A DNA stretch of 64,000 nt, taken from the NCBI GenBank assembly GCA_046327845.1, contig JAXLXQ010000008.1, positions 37,202-101,201 on the forward strand, read 5' to 3'. Each line of letters begins with the position of its first letter. Positions within the stretch are counted from its first letter, which is position 1. This DNA comes from Candidatus Eiseniibacteriota bacterium. Lineage in GTDB: Bacteria > Eisenbacteria > RBG-16-71-46 > CAIMUX01. The notes beneath the pieces are model-generated. The model saw only the letters and a list, made by a program, of their open reading frames with translations. It had not been told where the DNA came from and ran no database searches. The position numbers and the translations under genes were made by a program. Shown here in pieces: positions 3,653 to 60,393 of this stretch.

Positions 3653-4426
3653 TCAGTAGACGAGATATCCCCGCACGTCATCGTGGCTCGAGGTGACGAT
3701 CAGCTGATTGCGGACCGCCGCGTTTGGAGTCGAGAGCGTCACCGCTCCTCCCGCGATGCTCAGAATCGTCGTGTTGCTGTTGAAGGACGCGGTCCCACGG
3801 ATGATCACGCCCGTCCCATCGATGCCCTGCCAGGCGAGGTTGTAGTCGTTCTCGATGCAGTTGACGTAACCGATGTCGTTGATGTGCGGCGACGCGTGAG
3901 GCGCGCTCAGCACGATGGTGAAGGGCAGATAGGGCGGCGTCGTGATGGTCAGACTCCCGCCTCCACCGGCGATGCTGAAGATGTAGGAATGGGCCATGTC
4001 GGCGGCGTGGAGTCCGTCAACCTTGTCCGCTTCAGCCGCGCGACTGGAGTTGAGCGCTGACGGCGCCGAGGCGAGCATGACCCGCGGTGCGAGTTCCGCC
4101 TCACCACCGACCTGCGTGCTCAGCCAGTACTGATGGTCGAACTCCATCGAGAGCGGCGCCACCGCGCCGAGCGTGGCGTTGAACAGGCCGCGCGAGACCG
4201 CGATGACCTGCGTCTCCGCCCACACCGGCGAACCTCCGGTCGCCGCCTCGTACAGCCGGAAGGTGAGCTGGTAGTTGCCGTCGGGCACGAGGCTGGTGTC
4301 AGCGTTTCTCAGGATGCCTTGGTAGCTCATCGTGCGGGGCACGTCGGCCAATGCGCTGCTTGCGATCGACGCAGTGGCGGCGATCACGAGCAGAGCCAGA
4401 AGCAGGATGCTCTTGGTTCGAGCCAT
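3653..4426 (-). CDS. Secreted hypothetical protein (signal peptide; beta-rich, tail-fibre-like composition)
   Basis: An internal ATG at 4426 is preceded by gggagg and followed by the signal peptide MARTKSILLLALLVIAATASIASSALA. The upstream part of the long track ORF is R-rich junk, so the short form is preferred. Confidence 0.55.
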   Translation of the reverse strand: MARTKSILLLALLVIAATASIASSALADVPRTMSYQGILRNADTSLVPDGNYQLTFRLYEAATGGSPVWAETQVIAVSRGLFNATLGAVAPLSMEFDHQYWLSTQVGGEAELAPRVMLASAPSALNSSRAAEADKVDGLHAADMAHSYIFSIAGGGGSLTITTPPYLPFTIVLSAPHASPHINDIGYVNCIENDYNLAWQGIDGTGVIIRGTASFNSNTTILSIAGGAVTLSTPNAAVRNQLIVTSSHDDVRGYLVY

Positions 4427-4431
4427 GGCGC

Positions 4432-4962
4432 TTACCTCCCACCACGGAGCAGCACGAGCCGCTTCGTGTCGCTTACTCCCGGTGCGGTCATTCGACAGAG
4501 ATAGACACCGCTCGGGAGGTTGGTCACCGGCAGCGCGACACGCGCGATGCCCGGGCCGAGGTCTGCGTCCACCAGATCCTTCCGGACGCGTCCCGTCACG
4601 TCGTAGAGCTTCACGCTGACGTGCGCGCGCGCCGGAAGGAGAAGCGAGATCTCGGAGCCCGGCTGGAGCGGGTTGGGCGCGATCTCGAAGGTGGCGAAGC
4701 GTTCGATAGCCGATTGCGGAGGCGGCGGCGCATCGGAGGTGACCAGTCCGAGGACTTGCCAGTATCCGATGTCGATGCGATGACCGCCTGTCACGACGCC
4801 GATGACCGGTTGCGCCAGCGTCGCGTCGAGCCGGTAACTCGGACCGCTCGACATGACGCCACCGCTCCCCAGCACCGACTGACTCATCGTTGTCTCGGCG
4901 TGGGCCGACGTCACCATCAGCCCGAGCAGAGGCAGGAGCAAAACCAACGTGAGTCTCTTCAT
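4432..4962 (-). CDS. Small secreted protein with a T9SS/FlgD-Ig-like C-terminal domain
   Basis: The ATG at 4962 has a ggagg RBS. The signal peptide is MKRLTLVLLLPLLGLMVTSAHA. The C-terminus (FEIAPNPLQPGSEISLLL...VKLYDVTGRVRK...GVYLCRMTAPGVSDTKRLVLL) matches the same CTD family as the S8 peptidase and the 42487..44106 protein. Confidence 0.6.
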   Translation of the reverse strand: MKRLTLVLLLPLLGLMVTSAHAETTMSQSVLGSGGVMSSGPSYRLDATLAQPVIGVVTGGHRIDIGYWQVLGLVTSDAPPPPQSAIERFATFEIAPNPLQPGSEISLLLPARAHVSVKLYDVTGRVRKDLVDADLGPGIARVALPVTNLPSGVYLCRMTAPGVSDTKRLVLLRGGR

Positions 4963-5310
4963 GGGTTCCTCCAATCGACCGGACGAGTCCGGTCGCGTTT
5001 CTTGAACGTCGACAGGTCGCGAAGATCGGCGCTTCGCGAGCCGAGAGTGGGCGGCCCGCGTTCACTCGCCGTCCGGTGGGCTTGATCGATCGCCATGACA
5101 AGCCTCCAGTGAGAGCAGGGTCACTTCGCTTCGGGAGACTCGGGAGGAGAGGAGGGATCGGCGGCAGAGAGATGCTGGACACCTCGCGGCGGCGCGGTCA
5201 ATCCGCAAAATGCATCCTTCTTCAACTCGCTGGGCCTTGCGGTTTCCGGCTTCGATCAGCCATCTTCTCCCCTCGCCGCGAGCAATCCAGAAGGAGAACA
5301 GCAACTTCGC

Positions 5311-7191
5311 ATGCCCCTGCTCGGCCTGAATGGCGCGACCCTCGCGTTCCACGGTCCACCCCTGCTCGATCAGGTGACGCTCACCATCGACGATGGAGAG
5401 CGCATCGGTCTGCTCGGCCGAAACGGCGCGGGCAAGTCGACCCTGCTCAAGCTGCTCGCCGGCACGCTCAAGCCGGACGCGGGCGACATCGCGCGTCAGG
5501 TGGGACTGCGCGTCGCCGGGCTCGAGCAGGATGTGCCGCTCGACCTGGACGGTGCGGTGCGCGCCGTGATGCTCGAGCAGTGCGGCGTGGCCGAGAGTCA
5601 CCATCCGTGGGAGATCGAGACGCGCGTCGACCAGTTGATCGCCGCGCTTGGGCTCGATCCGGAGGTGCCGATCCCAACCCTTTCGGCTGGATCGAAGAGG
5701 CGCGTGCTGCTCGCCACCGCACTCGCGCTCGATCCTGATCTGCTCTTCCTCGACGAGCCGACCAACCACCTCGACATCGAGGCGATCACCCACCTGGAAG
5801 AGGTGCTGGAGCGACGACGCGGCGCGCTCGTCTTCGTCACGCACGATCGAAGCTTCTTGCGGCGCGTCGCCACGCGCATCCTGGATCTGGATCGCGGCTC
5901 GATTCGGAGTTACCGCTTCGGATACGACGCCTATCTGGAGAAGCGCGAAGACGAGCTGCGCGTCGAAGCGGAGCAGGCGGAGCAGTTCGACAAGAAGCTT
6001 GCGCAGGAAGAGGCGTGGCTTCGTCGCGGGATCAAGGCGCGACGCACGCGCAACGAGGGCCGCGTGCGCGCGCTCCTCGCCTTGCGCGACGAGCGCCGCG
6101 CGCGCCGTGAGGTGCAAGGGCGCGCGTCGGCCCAGCTCCAGGAAGCGGAGCGCTCCGGGCGTGTCGTGCTGCGCGCCGATCGGATCTCCTATGCCTACGA
6201 GCGACCGATCGTGCGCGACTTCTCGACCACCGTGCTCCGCGGCGATCGCGTCGGCATCATCGGACCCAACGGGTGCGGCAAGACCACGCTGCTGCGCTTG
6301 CTCTTGGGCGAGCTCGCCCCGCAATCGGGCGAGCTGGTCACCGGTGTGAAGGTGGAGGCGGCGCACTTCGAGCAGCTTCACGACGTGCTCGACGACACAA
6401 AGACGGTCGTCGACAACGTGGCCGACGGACGGGAGATGCTTTCGATCAACGGGCAACCGCGCCACGCGGTTGGCTATCTCCGAGACTTCCTCTTTACCAG
6501 CGAGCAGATACAAGGCCCGGTCACGCGGCTGTCGGGCGGCGAGCGCCGTCGGCTCCAGCTCGCGCGGCTCCTCTCACAGCCGACCAACCTGCTGGTCCTC
6601 GACGAGCCGACCAACGATCTCGACCTCGAGACGCTCGAGCTGCTGGAAGATCTGCTGCTGGAATTCCAGGGGACGCTGCTGGTCGTGTCGCACGATCGCG
6701 AGTTCCTGAACAACGTCGTCACGTCGACCATCGCGTTCGAAGGGGATGGCGAGTGGCGCGAGTATGTCGGCGGGTTCGACGACTGGGTGCGGCAGCGGGC
6801 GAGCGCGGCGAGAGTCGACGCGCGGGGCGCGGAGCGCCCCAGGCGCACAGGCGCAGGCGCCAAGGAGACGCCGACGCCGAATGCCGCCGGCGTCTCGCCC
6901 GATGACTCGGAGAGCGCGGCGAGAGTAGACGTCCTCGCCTCACGTGTGGATCCGCGACCGCGCAGACTGGGCTTCAAGGAGACGCGCGAGCTCGAGTCCT
7001 TGCCGGGGCGCATCGAGTCTCTCGAGGTGGAGAAGGAGCGGCTGGTCGCGTTGCTTGCGTCTCCCGCCCTCTACACGACCCGCGCCGGTGAGGTCGGGCC
7101 GACCAAGGAGCGGCTCGCGGCGGTGGAGAGTGAACTGCACGCCGCGATGGAGCGGTGGATGGAGTTGGAGAGCATCCGTGACGGTCGATAG
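5311..7191 (+). CDS. uup: ABC-F family ATPase (Uup-like; two ABC domains and a C-terminal coiled-coil)
   Basis: There are two Walker A motifs (GRNGAGKST, GPNGCGKTT) and two ABC signature motifs (LSAGSKRRV, LSGGERRRL). There are no TM segments. The C-terminal coiled-coil tail (ELESLPGRIESLEVEKERL...) is typical of Uup. Confidence 0.9.
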   Translation: MPLLGLNGATLAFHGPPLLDQVTLTIDDGERIGLLGRNGAGKSTLLKLLAGTLKPDAGDIARQVGLRVAGLEQDVPLDLDGAVRAVMLEQCGVAESHHPWEIETRVDQLIAALGLDPEVPIPTLSAGSKRRVLLATALALDPDLLFLDEPTNHLDIEAITHLEEVLERRRGALVFVTHDRSFLRRVATRILDLDRGSIRSYRFGYDAYLEKREDELRVEAEQAEQFDKKLAQEEAWLRRGIKARRTRNEGRVRALLALRDERRARREVQGRASAQLQEAERSGRVVLRADRISYAYERPIVRDFSTTVLRGDRVGIIGPNGCGKTTLLRLLLGELAPQSGELVTGVKVEAAHFEQLHDVLDDTKTVVDNVADGREMLSINGQPRHAVGYLRDFLFTSEQIQGPVTRLSGGERRRLQLARLLSQPTNLLVLDEPTNDLDLETLELLEDLLLEFQGTLLVVSHDREFLNNVVTSTIAFEGDGEWREYVGGFDDWVRQRASAARVDARGAERPRRTGAGAKETPTPNAAGVSPDDSESAARVDVLASRVDPRPRRLGFKETRELESLPGRIESLEVEKERLVALLASPALYTTRAGEVGPTKERLAAVESELHAAMERWMELESIRDGR

Positions 7192-55267: not shown

Positions 55268-55332
55268 GCGTGTGACGACGGGTGGAGCTGGCCGAGTACG
55301 TTCGCTCAGCGATTACGCGAAGGAAACCTCTC

Positions 55333-55851
55333 ATGCTGACAATTGAGCGCCTCACCCCCGCCCTCGCCCTCGCCTTCAAGTCCGCCCGCCTCCGCGCCCT
55401 CCTCGACTCCCCCTCCGCCTTCGCCTCCACCTACGCCAGCGAATCTCCACGGACCGACGCTGAGTGGGCCGACCGCGCCGCGCAAATGAACGGCGACCGC
55501 TCGACCTGCTACCTCGCGTTCGACGGCGACGACGCGTGCGGAATCGTCGCGGGCTTCCTCGATCGCGAGGACGCAACCAAGGCGCACCTCGTCTCGATGT
55601 GGGTCGCGCCGGAGCACCGCGGCACGGGACTCGGCCAACGGCTCGTCGCCATGATCCTCGACTGGGCGCGCGACCGCGGCGTCCGCACCGTCTACCTGAT
55701 GGTGACCTCGAACAATCACGGCGCGGCGCGCTTCTACGAACGACTCGGCTTCACCATGACCGGCCGCACCGAGCCGTACCCGCACGACGCGGCCCTCCTA
55801 GACCTGGAGATGAGCCGGGACCTGCACGGCGCGTCGCCGACCGTCGGCTGA
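55333..55851 (+). CDS. GNAT-family N-acetyltransferase
   Basis: Motif A reads VSMWVAPEHRGTGLGQRLVAMILDWARDRG...LMVTSNNHGAARFYERLGF. Confidence 0.8.
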   Translation: MLTIERLTPALALAFKSARLRALLDSPSAFASTYASESPRTDAEWADRAAQMNGDRSTCYLAFDGDDACGIVAGFLDREDATKAHLVSMWVAPEHRGTGLGQRLVAMILDWARDRGVRTVYLMVTSNNHGAARFYERLGFTMTGRTEPYPHDAALLDLEMSRDLHGASPTVG

Positions 55852-55937
55852 TTCCCCCGCCACAAAATTCCTGCACAATATCCCCCGCACTCATCCGTCT
55901 TCGAAAGTGGAAGCAACGCTCGACCGGATCGGGAGGC

Positions 55938-56486
55938 ATGGAGCGCGAACAGGACCAGCGGATCGCCGACATCGTCGAACGGGAGGGCTCGCGCCTGCGG
56001 GGCTTCATCCGTCGCCGCGTCAGCGACCCGGGGGAGATCGAGGACATCCTGCAGGACGTCTTCTACGAGCTGGTCGAGGCGAACCGACTGCTGGTGCCGA
56101 TCGACCACGCGGCGGGCTGGCTGTTTCGGGTCGCGCGCAATCGCATCACCGACCTCTTCCGCCGGAAGAAGCCGGAGAGGTTCGCGAGCGCGGGCGGCGA
56201 CGACTCGGGCGCCGCGGTCGAGGACCTCTTGCCGTCGCCCGAGGCGGGGCCGGAAGCGCTCTTCGCGCGGCGCGTGCTGATCGAGGAACTCGAAGAAGCG
56301 ATCGCCGAGTTGCCGGACGAGCTGCGCGAGATCTTCGTCGCGCACGAGATCGAAGGTCGGAGCTTCCGCGAGATGGCCGAGGAGAGCGGCACGAACATCA
56401 ACACGCTGCTCTCGCGAAAACGAACCGCGGTCCTCAGGCTGCGCGAGCGGCTTGCGGAAGTTCACGAAGCGTTCCGCGACGCGTGA
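55938..56486 (+). CDS. ECF (group IV sigma-70) RNA polymerase sigma factor
   Basis: Region 2 is ILQDVFYELVEANRLLVPIDHAAGWLFRVARNRITDLFRR. Region 4 is ELPDELREIFVAHEIEGRSFREMAEESGTNINTLLSRKRTAVLRLRE. Confidence 0.88.
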   Translation: MEREQDQRIADIVEREGSRLRGFIRRRVSDPGEIEDILQDVFYELVEANRLLVPIDHAAGWLFRVARNRITDLFRRKKPERFASAGGDDSGAAVEDLLPSPEAGPEALFARRVLIEELEEAIAELPDELREIFVAHEIEGRSFREMAEESGTNINTLLSRKRTAVLRLRERLAEVHEAFRDA

Positions 56487-56496
56487 GGAGAGTACG

Positions 56497-56832
56497 ATGC
56501 GCAAGAAGCTGTTCTGGATCGCACCGCTGGCCCTGACCGCCTTCGCCGGGTTCCTGGCGCTCGGCACCTACGTGGTGATGCGCCTGTGGAATTGGCTCAC
56601 GCCGGAGCTCTTCGGCTGGCACACGCTGACCTTCTTCCAGGCGCTCGGCCTGATCGTCCTCTGCCGGCTCCTCTTCGGCGGGCTCGGCATCTCGCGAGGA
56701 CCGCGGCGCGAGGTTCGCCATCGCTGGCAAGCGCGCTGGGGCGGCATGACGTCGGAGGAGCGCGAGCGGTTCACCTTCGGCATGCGCGGGCCGGGACGGC
56801 ACGAGGCGCCGCCTCCGCCGGCGGGCGTGTGA
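56497..56832 (+). CDS. Small two-TM membrane protein immediately downstream of the ECF sigma (candidate unconventional anti-sigma or partner protein)
   Basis: It reads MRKKLFWIAPLALTAFAGFLALGTYVVMRLWNWLTPELFGWHTLTFFQALGLIVLCRLLFGG, followed by a charged tail. It starts 11 nt after the sigma-factor stop. Confidence 0.5.
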   Translation: MRKKLFWIAPLALTAFAGFLALGTYVVMRLWNWLTPELFGWHTLTFFQALGLIVLCRLLFGGLGISRGPRREVRHRWQARWGGMTSEERERFTFGMRGPGRHEAPPPPAGV

Positions 56833-56893
56833 TCGCCTCGGCGGCCATGCGCTGCTGCTCTCCGACGTTCGCGGGCTGCGCGCGGTTCACGCG

Positions 56894-58411
56894 GTGGGCT
56901 ATCCTCGCGTACCGCCAGCCCGCGTCGTGGACCGGAAGAACGAGCGCCGCCTCGCTGGGTCACCGGGTGAGCGGAGGAGCACACGAGCGCACGCCCGTCG
57001 AGGGAGAACCAAGTTGGAAGACCCAGACCGTTCGGCGCAGCACTCGCCGCTGACCCCTCATCACCTCATCCCGATCGGTGACCTGCGCCTCGCCAACGAT
57101 CACCTGCGCGCAGCGGGCGCCGGACTCCTCGTCGCGCTGCTGACTCTGCTCGTTGCACAACCATCCGGCGCGCAGCAGCAACCGCCGGTACTCAAGGCGA
57201 CCTCGAAGACGGTGGACATCCGCGACGGCGGCAAGCTGCTGAAGGGGATCTGGTCGATCGACCCATCCTCGACGCTCGACATCTACGACGCAGAGCGAAC
57301 GGCCACGGACAAGACCGTGACCTTCATCACGGACATCGACTCCCTCTCGATCCAAGTCCAGCCGGGTCACACCTACGACTTCACGATCCTGCTCGGTGGC
57401 AACGAGGAGTGCCACACGCGCATCTCGACCATGACGCAGCCGTACAGGCGCGCGGTCGCGCGTGAAGCAGCCGGCCCGGACACCATTCCGATCACGATCT
57501 CCCACGGCAAGCTGCACCTCGCCGGGACGGTCAACGGTTCGAAGACGCTCGACCTGATCTTCGACACCGGCGCGAACACCAGCGTGCTTTATCCCTCGGC
57601 AGCCCGCGCGGGGGCGGAGCTTCGGCTAGATGGCGTCACCAACAACGTCGGCACGGGCGGCGCGACCCTGCGCCGGACCAGTCGTGACAACCGACTCGAG
57701 GTCGCGGGGCTTTACTGGGAGCACGAGCCCTTTCTCTACGTGGAGAAGCAAGCCGATCGCGCCGACGGGATCGTCGGGTACCCGGTCTTCCAGGACAAGG
57801 TGGTCGAGTTCGACTACGACCACATGGTGATGATCATCCACCCCGCGCTGCCGTCGCGCGCCTCCGACTATGCGCGGACCGTGATGCGCTGGATTCGCTC
57901 GATCACGGCCGTGGAGGTGGTTCTCGCGCGAGGAGAGCAGACGTGGAGCGGCCCGTTCTTCCTGGACACCGGCGGGACGGGGGCAATGAACGTCTACGAG
58001 GAGTTCTCTCGAACGCACGATCTGCGTCGCGAGCTACGCGGGCTCGGCACGAGCGCCTCTCGCGGCGTGGGAAGCGGCGTCGTCCGGAACGCGATCCTCC
58101 TGCTGCCGGAGTTGCGGCTCGCGGGGTTCACGCTTCGTGACGTTCCGATTCACGCGGAGCTCACGCCGGGGAGCGGCGGCCCCGAGCAGGGCGGCACGCT
58201 CAACATGGAAGTGCTCCAGCGCTTCAACGCCTTCCTCGACTACCCGCGCGACGCGGCCTATTTCAAACCTAGCGCGCGCTTCGGGGCCCCGTTTAAGGTC
58301 CCGCCGACCAGCCTGCCATGGATCATCGGCGGCGCCGTCGCGGGACTCGTCCTCGGCCTCGCGGGCCTGCGGTCGGCGATGGCCAAGCGCGCGACGTCGT
58401 CACGCATGTAG
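56894..58411 (+). CDS. Secreted, C-terminally membrane-anchored aspartic protease with two DTG motifs (pepsin/retropepsin-like); start probably internal, ~57020
   Basis: The signal-like segment is GAGLLVALLTLLVAQPSGAQQ. The two catalytic-type motifs are LIFDTGANTSVLY and FFLDTGGTGAMNVY, about 150 aa apart. The C-terminal TM is LPWIIGGAVAGLVLGLAGL. Confidence 0.6.
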   Translation: MGYPRVPPARVVDRKNERRLAGSPGERRSTRAHARRGRTKLEDPDRSAQHSPLTPHHLIPIGDLRLANDHLRAAGAGLLVALLTLLVAQPSGAQQQPPVLKATSKTVDIRDGGKLLKGIWSIDPSSTLDIYDAERTATDKTVTFITDIDSLSIQVQPGHTYDFTILLGGNEECHTRISTMTQPYRRAVAREAAGPDTIPITISHGKLHLAGTVNGSKTLDLIFDTGANTSVLYPSAARAGAELRLDGVTNNVGTGGATLRRTSRDNRLEVAGLYWEHEPFLYVEKQADRADGIVGYPVFQDKVVEFDYDHMVMIIHPALPSRASDYARTVMRWIRSITAVEVVLARGEQTWSGPFFLDTGGTGAMNVYEEFSRTHDLRRELRGLGTSASRGVGSGVVRNAILLLPELRLAGFTLRDVPIHAELTPGSGGPEQGGTLNMEVLQRFNAFLDYPRDAAYFKPSARFGAPFKVPPTSLPWIIGGAVAGLVLGLAGLRSAMAKRATSSRM

Positions 58412-58633: not shown

Positions 58634-59071
58634 ATGCGTTGGATCACACGCACACACATTCATGTCGATCGAGTCGCCTGCCCGTGGTTGATTCGGCGAT
58701 TCGTCGACTCGCAGGCGGAGTTCCTCTTCGTGGCGCGCGAGCGAGTGGGCGCGGTCGCCGCCGAGCATCGCGCGATCCCCTTCGATGTCGCGGACGTGGA
58801 GCTTGGCCATCACGCGGGGAAGTGCTCCTTCGAGGCGATCATGACGAAGTACGCGCTGACCGACCCGGCATTGGAGCGGATGGCGCGCATCGTTCACGCG
58901 GCGGACATCGCGGCCGACTTGGCGACCGATCCGATCGCGCCTGGCTTGGAGGCGATCGCGGCCGGCTTCAGTCTCTTGATTCCCGACGACCACGCGAACC
59001 TCGAGGCGCAGTTCCCGCTCTACGACGCGCTCTACGCCTGGTGTCGTCTGCAGGTGGCCGCGGGCCGATAG
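58634..59071 (+). CDS. Chromate-resistance ChrB-domain-like protein
   Basis: MRWITRTHIHVDRVACPWLIRRFVDSQAEFLFV... resembles the Chrome_Resist family N-terminus. Confidence 0.5.
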   Translation: MRWITRTHIHVDRVACPWLIRRFVDSQAEFLFVARERVGAVAAEHRAIPFDVADVELGHHAGKCSFEAIMTKYALTDPALERMARIVHAADIAADLATDPIAPGLEAIAAGFSLLIPDDHANLEAQFPLYDALYAWCRLQVAAGR

Positions 59072-59105
59072 ATGCGGGGTGGGACGGCACCCGCGGAGGA
59101 GACGT

Positions 59106-59591
59106 ATGAGCCTCTCGACTGACCTTGTGGGCACCTGGATGCTCGAGTCGCGCATTGACGTGGACGGGGCCGGAGTTCCCCACCTCGATCCGCTCTTGGG
59201 CGAAGATCCGATCGCTCTCTTGTTCTACGACCGCTCGGGGCACTTCGCCGCGCAGTTCATGAGGCGCGATCGCTCGGTCGTCGTGGCGAGCGGGCCGGCC
59301 AACGCGGCGAACAACACGCAGGCACAGGGTGGCTACGACGCCTACTTCGGCACCTACAGCGTCGACGATGCGCGCGGCGTCGTGACGCAGCAGCTGCTCG
59401 GATCGCTCTCCGCTGGCAACGTCGGCATGGTGCTCTCGCGGGCGATGGAGGTGAGGGGCGACGCGCTGATCATCCGCTTGGAGACCACTGCGTACGACGG
59501 CGTGCCGGTGGTGCGCACGCTCACCTGGCGTCGGCTCCGAGAGAACGCGCTCGAGCGTGGTTCAGGCGGAACGAGCGGGACCGCGAGCTGA
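59106..59591 (+). CDS. Lipocalin-like domain protein
   Basis: DLVGTWMLESRIDVDGAG... is the lipocalin-like LVGTW motif. The size is ~160 aa. Confidence 0.5.
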   Translation: MSLSTDLVGTWMLESRIDVDGAGVPHLDPLLGEDPIALLFYDRSGHFAAQFMRRDRSVVVASGPANAANNTQAQGGYDAYFGTYSVDDARGVVTQQLLGSLSAGNVGMVLSRAMEVRGDALIIRLETTAYDGVPVVRTLTWRRLRENALERGSGGTSGTAS

Positions 59592-59595
59592 GCCC

Positions 59596-60311
59596 ATGCA
59601 GCCGGACGCGAAGCGGATCGTGGAGGAGGGATACGACCGCATCGCCCATCTCCACGCGGAGTGGGCAGCGCGCGTGCGCTCCGAGGAACGCGCCCGCTAC
59701 CTCGCCGCGTTCTGCGCGCGGGTCCCTGCCGGCGCGAGTGTCCTGGAACTGGGGTGCGGCGCTGGCGGCGCGGTGACGGACGCTCTCGCCGCTCGCTACC
59801 ACCTCACCGCCATCGATCTCTCGCGGCGCGCGATCGAAGCGGCGCGACTTCGCACCCCGCTCGCTCGATTCCTTCATGAAGACATGACGGGAGCCGACTT
59901 CCCGGCCGCGAGCTTTGCGGGAATCGTCGGGTTCTACTCGATCCTCCACGTCCCGCGCGAGGAGCAGGCCGCGCTGCTCTCACGGATCGCCAGTTGGCTC
60001 CAAGTCGGCGGCCTGTTCATGGCAGCCCTCGGCACGGCCGACGAGGCGCGGAGCTACGAAGACAACTGGTTGGGCGTCCGATGGTCTGGAGTTCACACGA
60101 CACCGCGACAACGTGCAGCATGGTGCGGGCCGCAGGCTTCGAGATCGAGAGCGCGGTGGTCAAGTCCGCGGATGAAGATGGCCAGGCGGTGTCGTTCCTT
60201 TGGATCATCGCGCGAAGGCCCGGCGCGGCGGTCGACGCCAATAGCGGCTCCTTGCTTCGAACCGGAGCTGGTCCCAGCGGTGACGGCGAATCACACGCAC
60301 GGGAGGAATAG
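59596..60311 (+). CDS. Class I SAM-dependent methyltransferase with an apparent -1 frameshift near 60070-60080
   Basis: The SAM motif is VLELGCGAGGAVTDAL. The N-terminal part (to ...SYEDNWLG) is in the 59557 frame. The C-terminal part (PMVWSSHDTATTCSMVRAAGFEIESAVVKSADEDGQAVSFLWIIARRP) is in the 59994 frame. Confidence 0.7.
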
Positions 60312-60393
60312 CCGCGGCGTCGAGTCAAGACTGTTGCTCCTCAGACGGCCAATTCACGGACAATTGTGGAAGCGCTTCTCGCGGAGGTAGCCA

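Follow-up and report, generated by a model that had tools for sequence, protein, structure and literature searches.

Three neighbouring genes at positions 55938-58411 of a 64-kb window (the whole stretch of DNA analysed, GC ~68%) from a Candidatus Eisenbacteria metagenome-assembled genome (MAG) raise the question of whether an extracytoplasmic function (ECF) sigma factor, a small protein with two predicted transmembrane (TM) helices and a membrane-anchored aspartic protease work together as a single regulated-proteolysis module. The original prediction for this locus had read the trio in this way, as a periplasmic protease genetically coupled to a sigma factor and its membrane partner. The three open reading frames (ORFs) are present and co-directional on the forward strand, as it had stated, but the comparison with other genomes separates them. 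In our reading, the locus very probably holds two independent functional units, the sigma factor gene with the two-TM gene and the protease gene by itself, which are adjacent by lineage-specific gene order. Both units belong to already known kinds, and it is their adjacency that is specific to the lineage.

The protease gene and the sigma/two-TM pair do not co-occur at the surveyed loci

The survey of the protease family covered 80 genomic loci, taken from different species and including flanks of up to 6 kb; that of the two-TM family covered 80 metagenomic loci, chosen from at least 462 matches. The two-TM gene was absent from all 80 protease loci. A relaxed search of the same loci, in 70 of which the upstream sequence exceeded 1.5 kb, found 6 sigma-like ORFs, none of them adjacent to the protease gene and the nearest ~1.4 kb away. 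A conserved neighbour of the protease gene of any other kind was not found among these loci either, the largest cluster of neighbouring genes covering 4 of 54 loci. In the opposite direction, the protease was absent from all 80 two-TM loci, and the genes that follow the sigma/two-TM pair vary from locus to locus (largest cluster, 5/61), with examples that include glycoside hydrolase and DinB_2 genes and, in convergent orientation, DUF4037 and Peptidase_M6 genes.

The closest non-trivial relative of the protease (63% identity) has neither a sigma nor a two-TM gene upstream, and next to the closest relative of the two-TM protein (81% identity) the sigma gene is kept and then followed by the convergent Peptidase_M6 gene, with no aspartic protease. 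The trio was kept only in a relative that is 94% identical and, because the entire region is syntenic there, from the acetyltransferase gene through the ChrB_C, lipocalin and methyltransferase genes, this relative gives no independent support. With no conservation of the neighbourhood from whichever gene the survey starts (0/80 and 0/80), the reading of the trio as one module is not supported, and the case that the prediction itself had named for its refutation, a gene order not kept in relatives, applies. Neither conserved co-occurrence nor conserved adjacency of the protease with the pair, by which a regulated-proteolysis system would be recognized, was found in the two surveys, and the promoter described below is absent before the protease gene. 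The co-occurrence analysis proposed together with the prediction turned against the genetic coupling that it claimed. What the locus shares with the Sigma-E/RseA/DegS system is only the idea of a periplasmic protease that starts the degradation of a membrane anti-sigma factor; here, in contrast, we found nothing conserved, genetic or regulatory, that links the protease to the anti-sigma candidate, and a Pfam scan of the protease found no PDZ or other sensor domain.

The genes that flank the trio, all on the forward strand, encode a GNAT acetyltransferase upstream (55282-55851) and ChrB_C, Lipocalin_5-like and class I methyltransferase proteins downstream (58634-60390). The 94%-identical relative keeps them in synteny, and none of them is related to the sigma system.

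The sigma factor and two-TM genes form an invariant pair behind a conserved promoter

The first gene (55938..56486, forward strand) encodes a protein of 182 aa that had been taken for an ECF sigma factor, and Pfam and NCBIfam scores above the cut-offs confirmed this identity: 46.3 bits for Sigma70_r2, 36.1 bits for Sigma70_r4_2, and 72.9 bits for TIGR02937 (sigma70-ECF) against a cut-off of 42.9. With this length and with regions sigma-2 and sigma-4 only, the protein has the make-up of the ECF (sigma-70 group 4) factors. The best sub-threshold NCBIfam matches were PRK12513, SigZ and the Bacteroides-type TIGR02985; an ECF238/SigZ-type regulation, raised by the SigZ match, was ruled out, as the sigma factor has no Cys-rich C-terminal extension.

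Only 10 nt (GGAGAGTACG), with a ribosome-binding site (RBS) inside them, separate the stop codon of the sigma gene from the start of the two-TM gene (56497..56832, forward strand). This arrangement recurs throughout the two-TM survey, where a sigma ortholog (E 1e-60 to 1e-79) lies directly before the two-TM gene and ends ~10 nt short of it at 63 of the 63 loci with upstream room. An alignment of 50 distinct loci revealed a promoter motif sharply conserved upstream of the orthologous sigma genes, and the position weight matrix (PWM) built from these sigma-upstream regions has the consensus CTACAATAT-N12/13-TTCGTCTAC. Its site in the window, GCACAATAT-N12-ATCCGTCTTC (-35 CAATA, -10 CGTCT), lies before the sigma gene at 55873..55902 on the forward strand and scores 23.1 bits, being the sole match above 8 bits on both strands of the 64 kb. 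Across these loci, the sigma and two-TM genes are an invariant, tightly spaced pair behind a conserved ECF-type promoter and, because this promoter precedes the sigma gene itself, we read the sigma gene as putatively autoregulated.

The same matrix found no sigma promoter before the protease gene of the window (best score -21.9 bits), and upstream of the protease genes at 81 other loci it returned weak matches only, mostly at AT-rich Bacteroidota loci. At 61 of the 80 two-TM loci the promoter occurs exactly once per locus, and further copies, sought as a local regulon, were not found in any of the 80 loci scanned.

The start of the sigma gene varies in one respect. At ~50 of 61 distinct orthologous loci an in-frame ATG stands exactly 10 nt past the -10 CGTCT, a position which suggests that the orthologous sigma mRNAs may be leaderless or near-leaderless and begin 9 codons ahead of the conserved start. 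The codon at the matching place in the window is a GTG (55907) that is out of frame, and the sole usable sigma start is the ATG at 55938, with a GGGAGG just 1 nt before it, an unusually short spacing.

The two-TM protein and its likeness to the ECF241 group

The second gene product had been described as a protein of ~110 aa with two TM helices and a charged tail that is not a classical anti-sigma factor, and both parts of this description held when we combined hydropathy, charge, an AlphaFold2 (AF2) model and an alignment of relatives. The protein has 111 aa and begins with an N-terminus of 4 residues (hydropathy), followed by a first hydrophobic segment (TM1, ~aa 5-28, 56509-56580), a Trp-rich loop of 16 residues with the pattern LWNWLxPxLFGW (RLWNWLTPELFGWHTL, 56581-56628) that is predicted to be periplasmic, a second hydrophobic segment (TM2, ~aa 45-64, 56629-56688) and a basic, putatively cytoplasmic tail of ~47 aa with two short helices (56689-56829), in which 10 K/R stand against 5 D/E. 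The AF2 model, with helices at residues 2-39, 46-60, 69-82 and 86-96, agrees with the two-TM topology, so the topology check proposed with the prediction shows, at the level of hydropathy and model, a membrane hairpin with a basic tail. Within this tail, residues R76, W81, M84 and R89 are invariant in the alignment.

The two-TM protein has no Pfam or NCBIfam match, hence no zinc-finger anti-sigma domain was detected in these scans. The class I (ZAS/RsrA/RseA-like) anti-sigma factors were recognized here by an N-terminal cytoplasmic domain of ~80-90 aa, often with an HxxxCxxC zinc motif, and the window protein, with its N-terminus of 4 aa and no anti-sigma domain match, is not of this class. 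It is 100% identical to an NCBI protein from a Candidatus Eisenbacteria MAG and belongs to a family of at least 7548 clusters at 90% identity, all annotated as 'hypothetical' and with named sources mostly in the Acidobacteriota. No Pfam or NCBIfam model describes this family; its Pfam scan gave sub-threshold matches to Metal_resist and DUF3106 only, with weak Metal_resist matches in 9 of 21 relatives (best E 0.025, below threshold). The family signature reads VVMRLWNWLTPxLFGW...QALGLLxLCRILFGGFG...RMxERWExMTPEEREKFR.

A published group of ECF sigma factors, ECF241, has a partner of the same design (Casas-Pastor et al. 2021, Nucleic Acids Research (NAR) 49:986, PMC7826278; supplement of bioRxiv 10.1101/2019.12.11.873521). 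According to that supplement (bioRxiv 10.1101/2019.12.11.873521), the ECF241 partner is encoded at position +1 or -1, begins with a short N-terminal stretch that leads into two consecutive TM helices, ends in a long charged region on the cytoplasmic side, and often matches Pfam Metal_resist weakly; its authors propose that the part following the helices contains an anti-sigma domain of divergent sequence and suggest a dual role of the partner in resistance and regulation. The group is further described there as autoregulated, with CAATA at -35 and TCT at -10, as having no conserved context beyond the pair, and as including Acidobacteria among its hosts, with BCAL2462 of Burkholderia cenocepacia as the sole studied member.

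The window pair is alike in the very short N-terminus, the two consecutive TM helices and the charged cytoplasmic C-terminus of the partner, in the autoregulatory promoter (-35 CAATA, -10 TCT), which was derived here independently from the 50 loci, in the lack of conserved context beyond the pair and in the Acidobacteria among the host phyla. As to Metal_resist, the weak matches come from 9 of 21 relatives and not from the window protein itself. It differs in its host, since Candidatus Eisenbacteria is a phylum not listed for ECF241, in the N-terminus of the partner (4 aa compared to the published 10-20 aa) and in the tail, whose ~47 aa lie at the lower limit of the published 50-260 aa. Both the partner architecture and the promoter of the group are thus found in the window, and we class its pair as ECF241-like, a probable member of the group. 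The original prediction had called the whole arrangement an architecture that was not described; for the sigma/two-TM part this does not hold, as the pair fits the published group.

A partner of the ECF241 kind would be a C-terminal anti-sigma factor. Alternatively, the two-TM protein could be an effector in the membrane that is co-transcribed with the sigma gene and serves, for example, in metal or membrane stress, with the sigma factor controlled otherwise, and this option is consistent with the lack of a recognizable anti-sigma domain, with the weak Metal_resist or DUF3106 similarity that is all the relatives show and with the dual resistance and regulation role suggested by the ECF241 authors. 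It is harder to reconcile with a +1 position that is strict in 63/63 loci behind an RBS-containing gap of ~10 nt, with the conserved basic tail and its four invariant residues, and with a sigma factor of 182 aa that carries no alternative regulatory extension. We consider the effector unlikely and favour an anti-sigma role for the two-TM protein.

The third gene encodes a single-chain tandem retropepsin-like protease

While the longest ORF of the third gene opens at GTG 56894, this codon marks the longest-ORF start only, and we favour TTG 57014 because of the N-termini of homologues, an RBS (GAGGGAG, 57000-57006) and two independent assemblies in which the gene is called with 465 aa. This TTG is the most likely start of the protease; it places the gene at 57014..58411 (forward strand), gives a product of 465 aa and leaves a gap of 181 nt to the two-TM gene. 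The gaps between the three genes, predicted as 11 nt and ~60 nt, accordingly measure 10 nt and 181 nt.

From its N-terminus onwards, the protease shows a signal-like hydrophobic segment as putative signal peptide (57014-57172), a beta-rich domain (aa 58-145, 57185-57448), a first lobe (57461-57865) with a DTG motif at aa 184-186 (57563-57571), a second lobe (57866-58288) with a DTG motif at aa 318-320 (57965-57973) and a hydrophobic segment at aa 432-455 (58307-58378) that is followed by a basic tail. Hydropathy therefore agrees with the earlier description of a secreted protein anchored by a single C-terminal TM helix, and the predicted topology is a periplasmic body held at the inner membrane by this one helix. 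The beta-strand domain that precedes both lobes is common to the family, has a nearly invariant Cys133 and gave weak fold matches in the PDB.

The two Asp-Thr-Gly motifs that had drawn attention to this protein are both present, with 134 aa between them rather than the ~150 aa first estimated. In an alignment of 21 relatives, down to 32% identity, both Asp are invariant, together with G186 and T319 (D184, G186, D318, T319), and T185 is conserved in at least 90% of the sequences. Because the Asp and Thr residues are conserved across these relatives, the two motifs are not chance tripeptides. Lobe 1 fits the pattern of the clan AA retropepsin-like proteases, in which two hydrophobic residues precede D-T/S-G-A/S; Pfam PF13650 (Asp_protease_2) matched it with 44 bits against a cut-off of 24.3, and the Pfam scan found this lobe alone and did not detect lobe 2. 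In a profile-profile comparison with hhalign, lobe 1 and lobe 2 align DTG on DTG and GIVGYPVF on GTLNMEVL (E 5.5e-4), and because of this alignment we read the two lobes as an internal duplication. The chain holds two homologous lobes with one Asp each, as in single-chain bilobal enzymes, so that the pseudo-dimeric architecture proposed for it is borne out by both the conservation and the alignment of the lobes. A single retropepsin-like lobe with its second DTG in a non-catalytic context, the case that had been envisaged against this architecture, is not what was found, lobe 2 being homologous to lobe 1 with D318-T319 invariant.

The models that had been named for classifying the protease gave a divided answer, with PF13650 matching lobe 1 only, TIGR02281 (clan_AA_DTGA) reaching 16.7 bits against a cut-off of 57.95 (E 0.0065) and Peptidase A1 (PF00026) showing no match at E<=1 in the Pfam scan. 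The structure was also compared by Foldseek, and the likeness to pepsin family A1 is one of fold only. The term pepsin-like is thus apt for the bilobal arrangement and fails for A1 membership: judged by profile and sequence comparison, the protease is by descent a tandem retropepsin-like (clan AA) enzyme and not a member of family A1. In comparison with pepsin, renin, plasmepsins and polyporopepsin, to which its identity is 10-16%, its lobes are retropepsin-sized and recognized by PF13650, and it has the extra N-terminal beta domain and the C-terminal membrane anchor. It also differs from Rickettsia APRc (PDB 5C9B) and Pseudomonas RloA/PA0462 (PDB 9G59), which have one lobe per chain and form homodimers, whereas the window protease fuses two diverged lobes.

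A search of 1.84 billion representatives found 2457 family proteins at E<=1e-3, of which 121 reach E<=1e-30, with matches that mostly span nearly the whole length. Phyla with relatives of the protease include Planctomycetota, Acidobacteriota, Eisenbacteria and Bacteroidota. By sequence, the family profile also picks up chain A of PDB 9IY9 ('Exported protein / putative endopeptidase', Bacteroides fragilis, released 2025-08-06) with E 9.7e-8 over both DTG lobes, at an identity of only 13-18% to the window protease. Such enzymes had been called rare in bacteria, a view that is difficult to maintain for a family with 2457 representatives and a solved B. fragilis structure. No publication on 9IY9, or on bacterial retropepsin-like enzymes with two lobes, came up in a literature search.

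Some members of the family depart from the common plan. A Bernardetia sp. locus carries two tandem protease paralogues (4015-5235 and 5905-7158), and an 852-aa representative matches the query in two stretches and looks like a fused double protease. A relative of 488 aa, on a contig of 2.6 kb, combines an ABC_tran (PF00005) match with the aspartic protease domains, and is probably either a fused protein or an artefact of assembly or gene calling.

The spacer between the two-TM gene and the protease gene

The intergenic spacer that separates the sigma/two-TM operon from the protease gene (56833..57013, forward strand, 181 nt) contains no sigma-70-like promoter and no intrinsic terminator according to simple scans, its fold is not more stable than those of shuffled sequences (z -1.46), and it has no Rfam match. 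A transcriptional coupling confined to this lineage can be built on these data, in which read-through from the sigma promoter would make the protease an effector of the ECF stress response, like DegP in the sigma-E regulon, and not a signal transducer. The genes lie on the same strand, and the spacer offers no detectable terminator, no promoter of its own in either of two scans and no structured RNA. However, simple scans miss many promoters and terminators in DNA of 68% GC, 181 nt is long for an operon junction when compared with the 10 nt between the sigma and two-TM genes, and relatives have unrelated or convergent genes after the pair, so that the operon normally ends after the two-TM gene. 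We hold such a coupling to be quite unlikely, and read-through of the protease gene here would be a local accident of gene order and not a conserved design.

It is very improbable, finally, that the protease acts as a site-1 protease on the two-TM anti-sigma factor and thereby releases the sigma factor within one regulated-proteolysis module, a role that could be argued from co-directional, adjacent genes with no terminator detected between the last two, from the periplasmic position that the protease body and the conserved two-TM loop would both have, and from the precedent of Caulobacter PerP, a periplasmic retropepsin-like protease that cleaves PodJ in the first step of a regulated proteolytic cascade, but that has against it a periplasmic loop of only ~16 residues, a sigma/two-TM pair that in thousands of lineages does its work with no protease gene beside it, the mutual absence in both surveys, the closest relatives of each gene lacking the other, and a sole trio-keeping relative that is nearly identical and fully syntenic.

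Discussion

The reading that we propose is that of two independent units. The first would be a self-contained, autoregulated operon of two genes, encoding an ECF241-type sigma factor and a two-TM hairpin protein, whose gene, 10 nt downstream of the sigma gene, is probably translationally coupled to it. The tail of the two-TM protein would hold the sigma factor at the membrane as a C-terminal anti-sigma domain, as proposed for ECF241, and would let it go when the hairpin and its Trp-rich loop sense a disturbance of the membrane or envelope. The freed sigma factor may then transcribe from CAATA-N-CGTCT promoters, those of its own operon and of distant targets. The second unit would be a stand-alone gene for a protease with a signal peptide, a periplasmic body and one C-terminal TM anchor in the inner membrane. 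In this body, the N-terminal beta-rich domain would be followed by the two fused retropepsin-like lobes, which contribute one catalytic Asp each to a pepsin-like cleft. The most likely role of the protease is that of a general endopeptidase of the envelope or periplasm, and not that of a signalling protease dedicated to the sigma system.

Several points weigh against this picture, most of them on the side of the two-TM protein. Its AF2 model is of moderate confidence, with a predicted local distance difference test (pLDDT) score of 68 and a predicted template modelling (pTM) score of 0.32, and, unlike the partners typical of ECF241, the window protein itself has no match to Pfam Metal_resist (PF13801) at E<=10. 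The probable assignment to ECF241 follows from partner architecture, promoter and context, and the putative anti-sigma role from where the gene lies, from its strict co-occurrence with the sigma gene and from the published prediction. In addition, no terminator was found in the spacer of 181 nt, which leaves room for read-through from the sigma promoter.

If the coupling is considered as a signalling module, the finding has no weight, because this coupling is not conserved. What it brings into view are the two families. The two-TM proteins constitute a large class (at least 7548 clusters) of putative C-terminal anti-sigma factors, and the sharply conserved promoter together with the invariant tail residues makes an anti-sigma test easy to design. 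Proteases that join tandem retropepsin lobes in a single chain with a pepsin-like arrangement occur widely among bacteria; a crystal structure exists, and our literature search found no published biochemistry on them.

We also raise, as an improbable extension, that a stand-alone bilobal protease gene was captured behind an ECF241-type operon in this Eisenbacteria lineage and is read through from the sigma promoter, which would give an envelope-stress sigma factor a new protease output or even provide a new site-1 protease for the two-TM anti-sigma factor and, separately, that the protease family arose by an independent bacterial duplication and fusion of retropepsin lobes into a pepsin-like enzyme. 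If this were true, the family would be a living analogue of the duplication-fusion step that has been postulated for the origin of pepsins.

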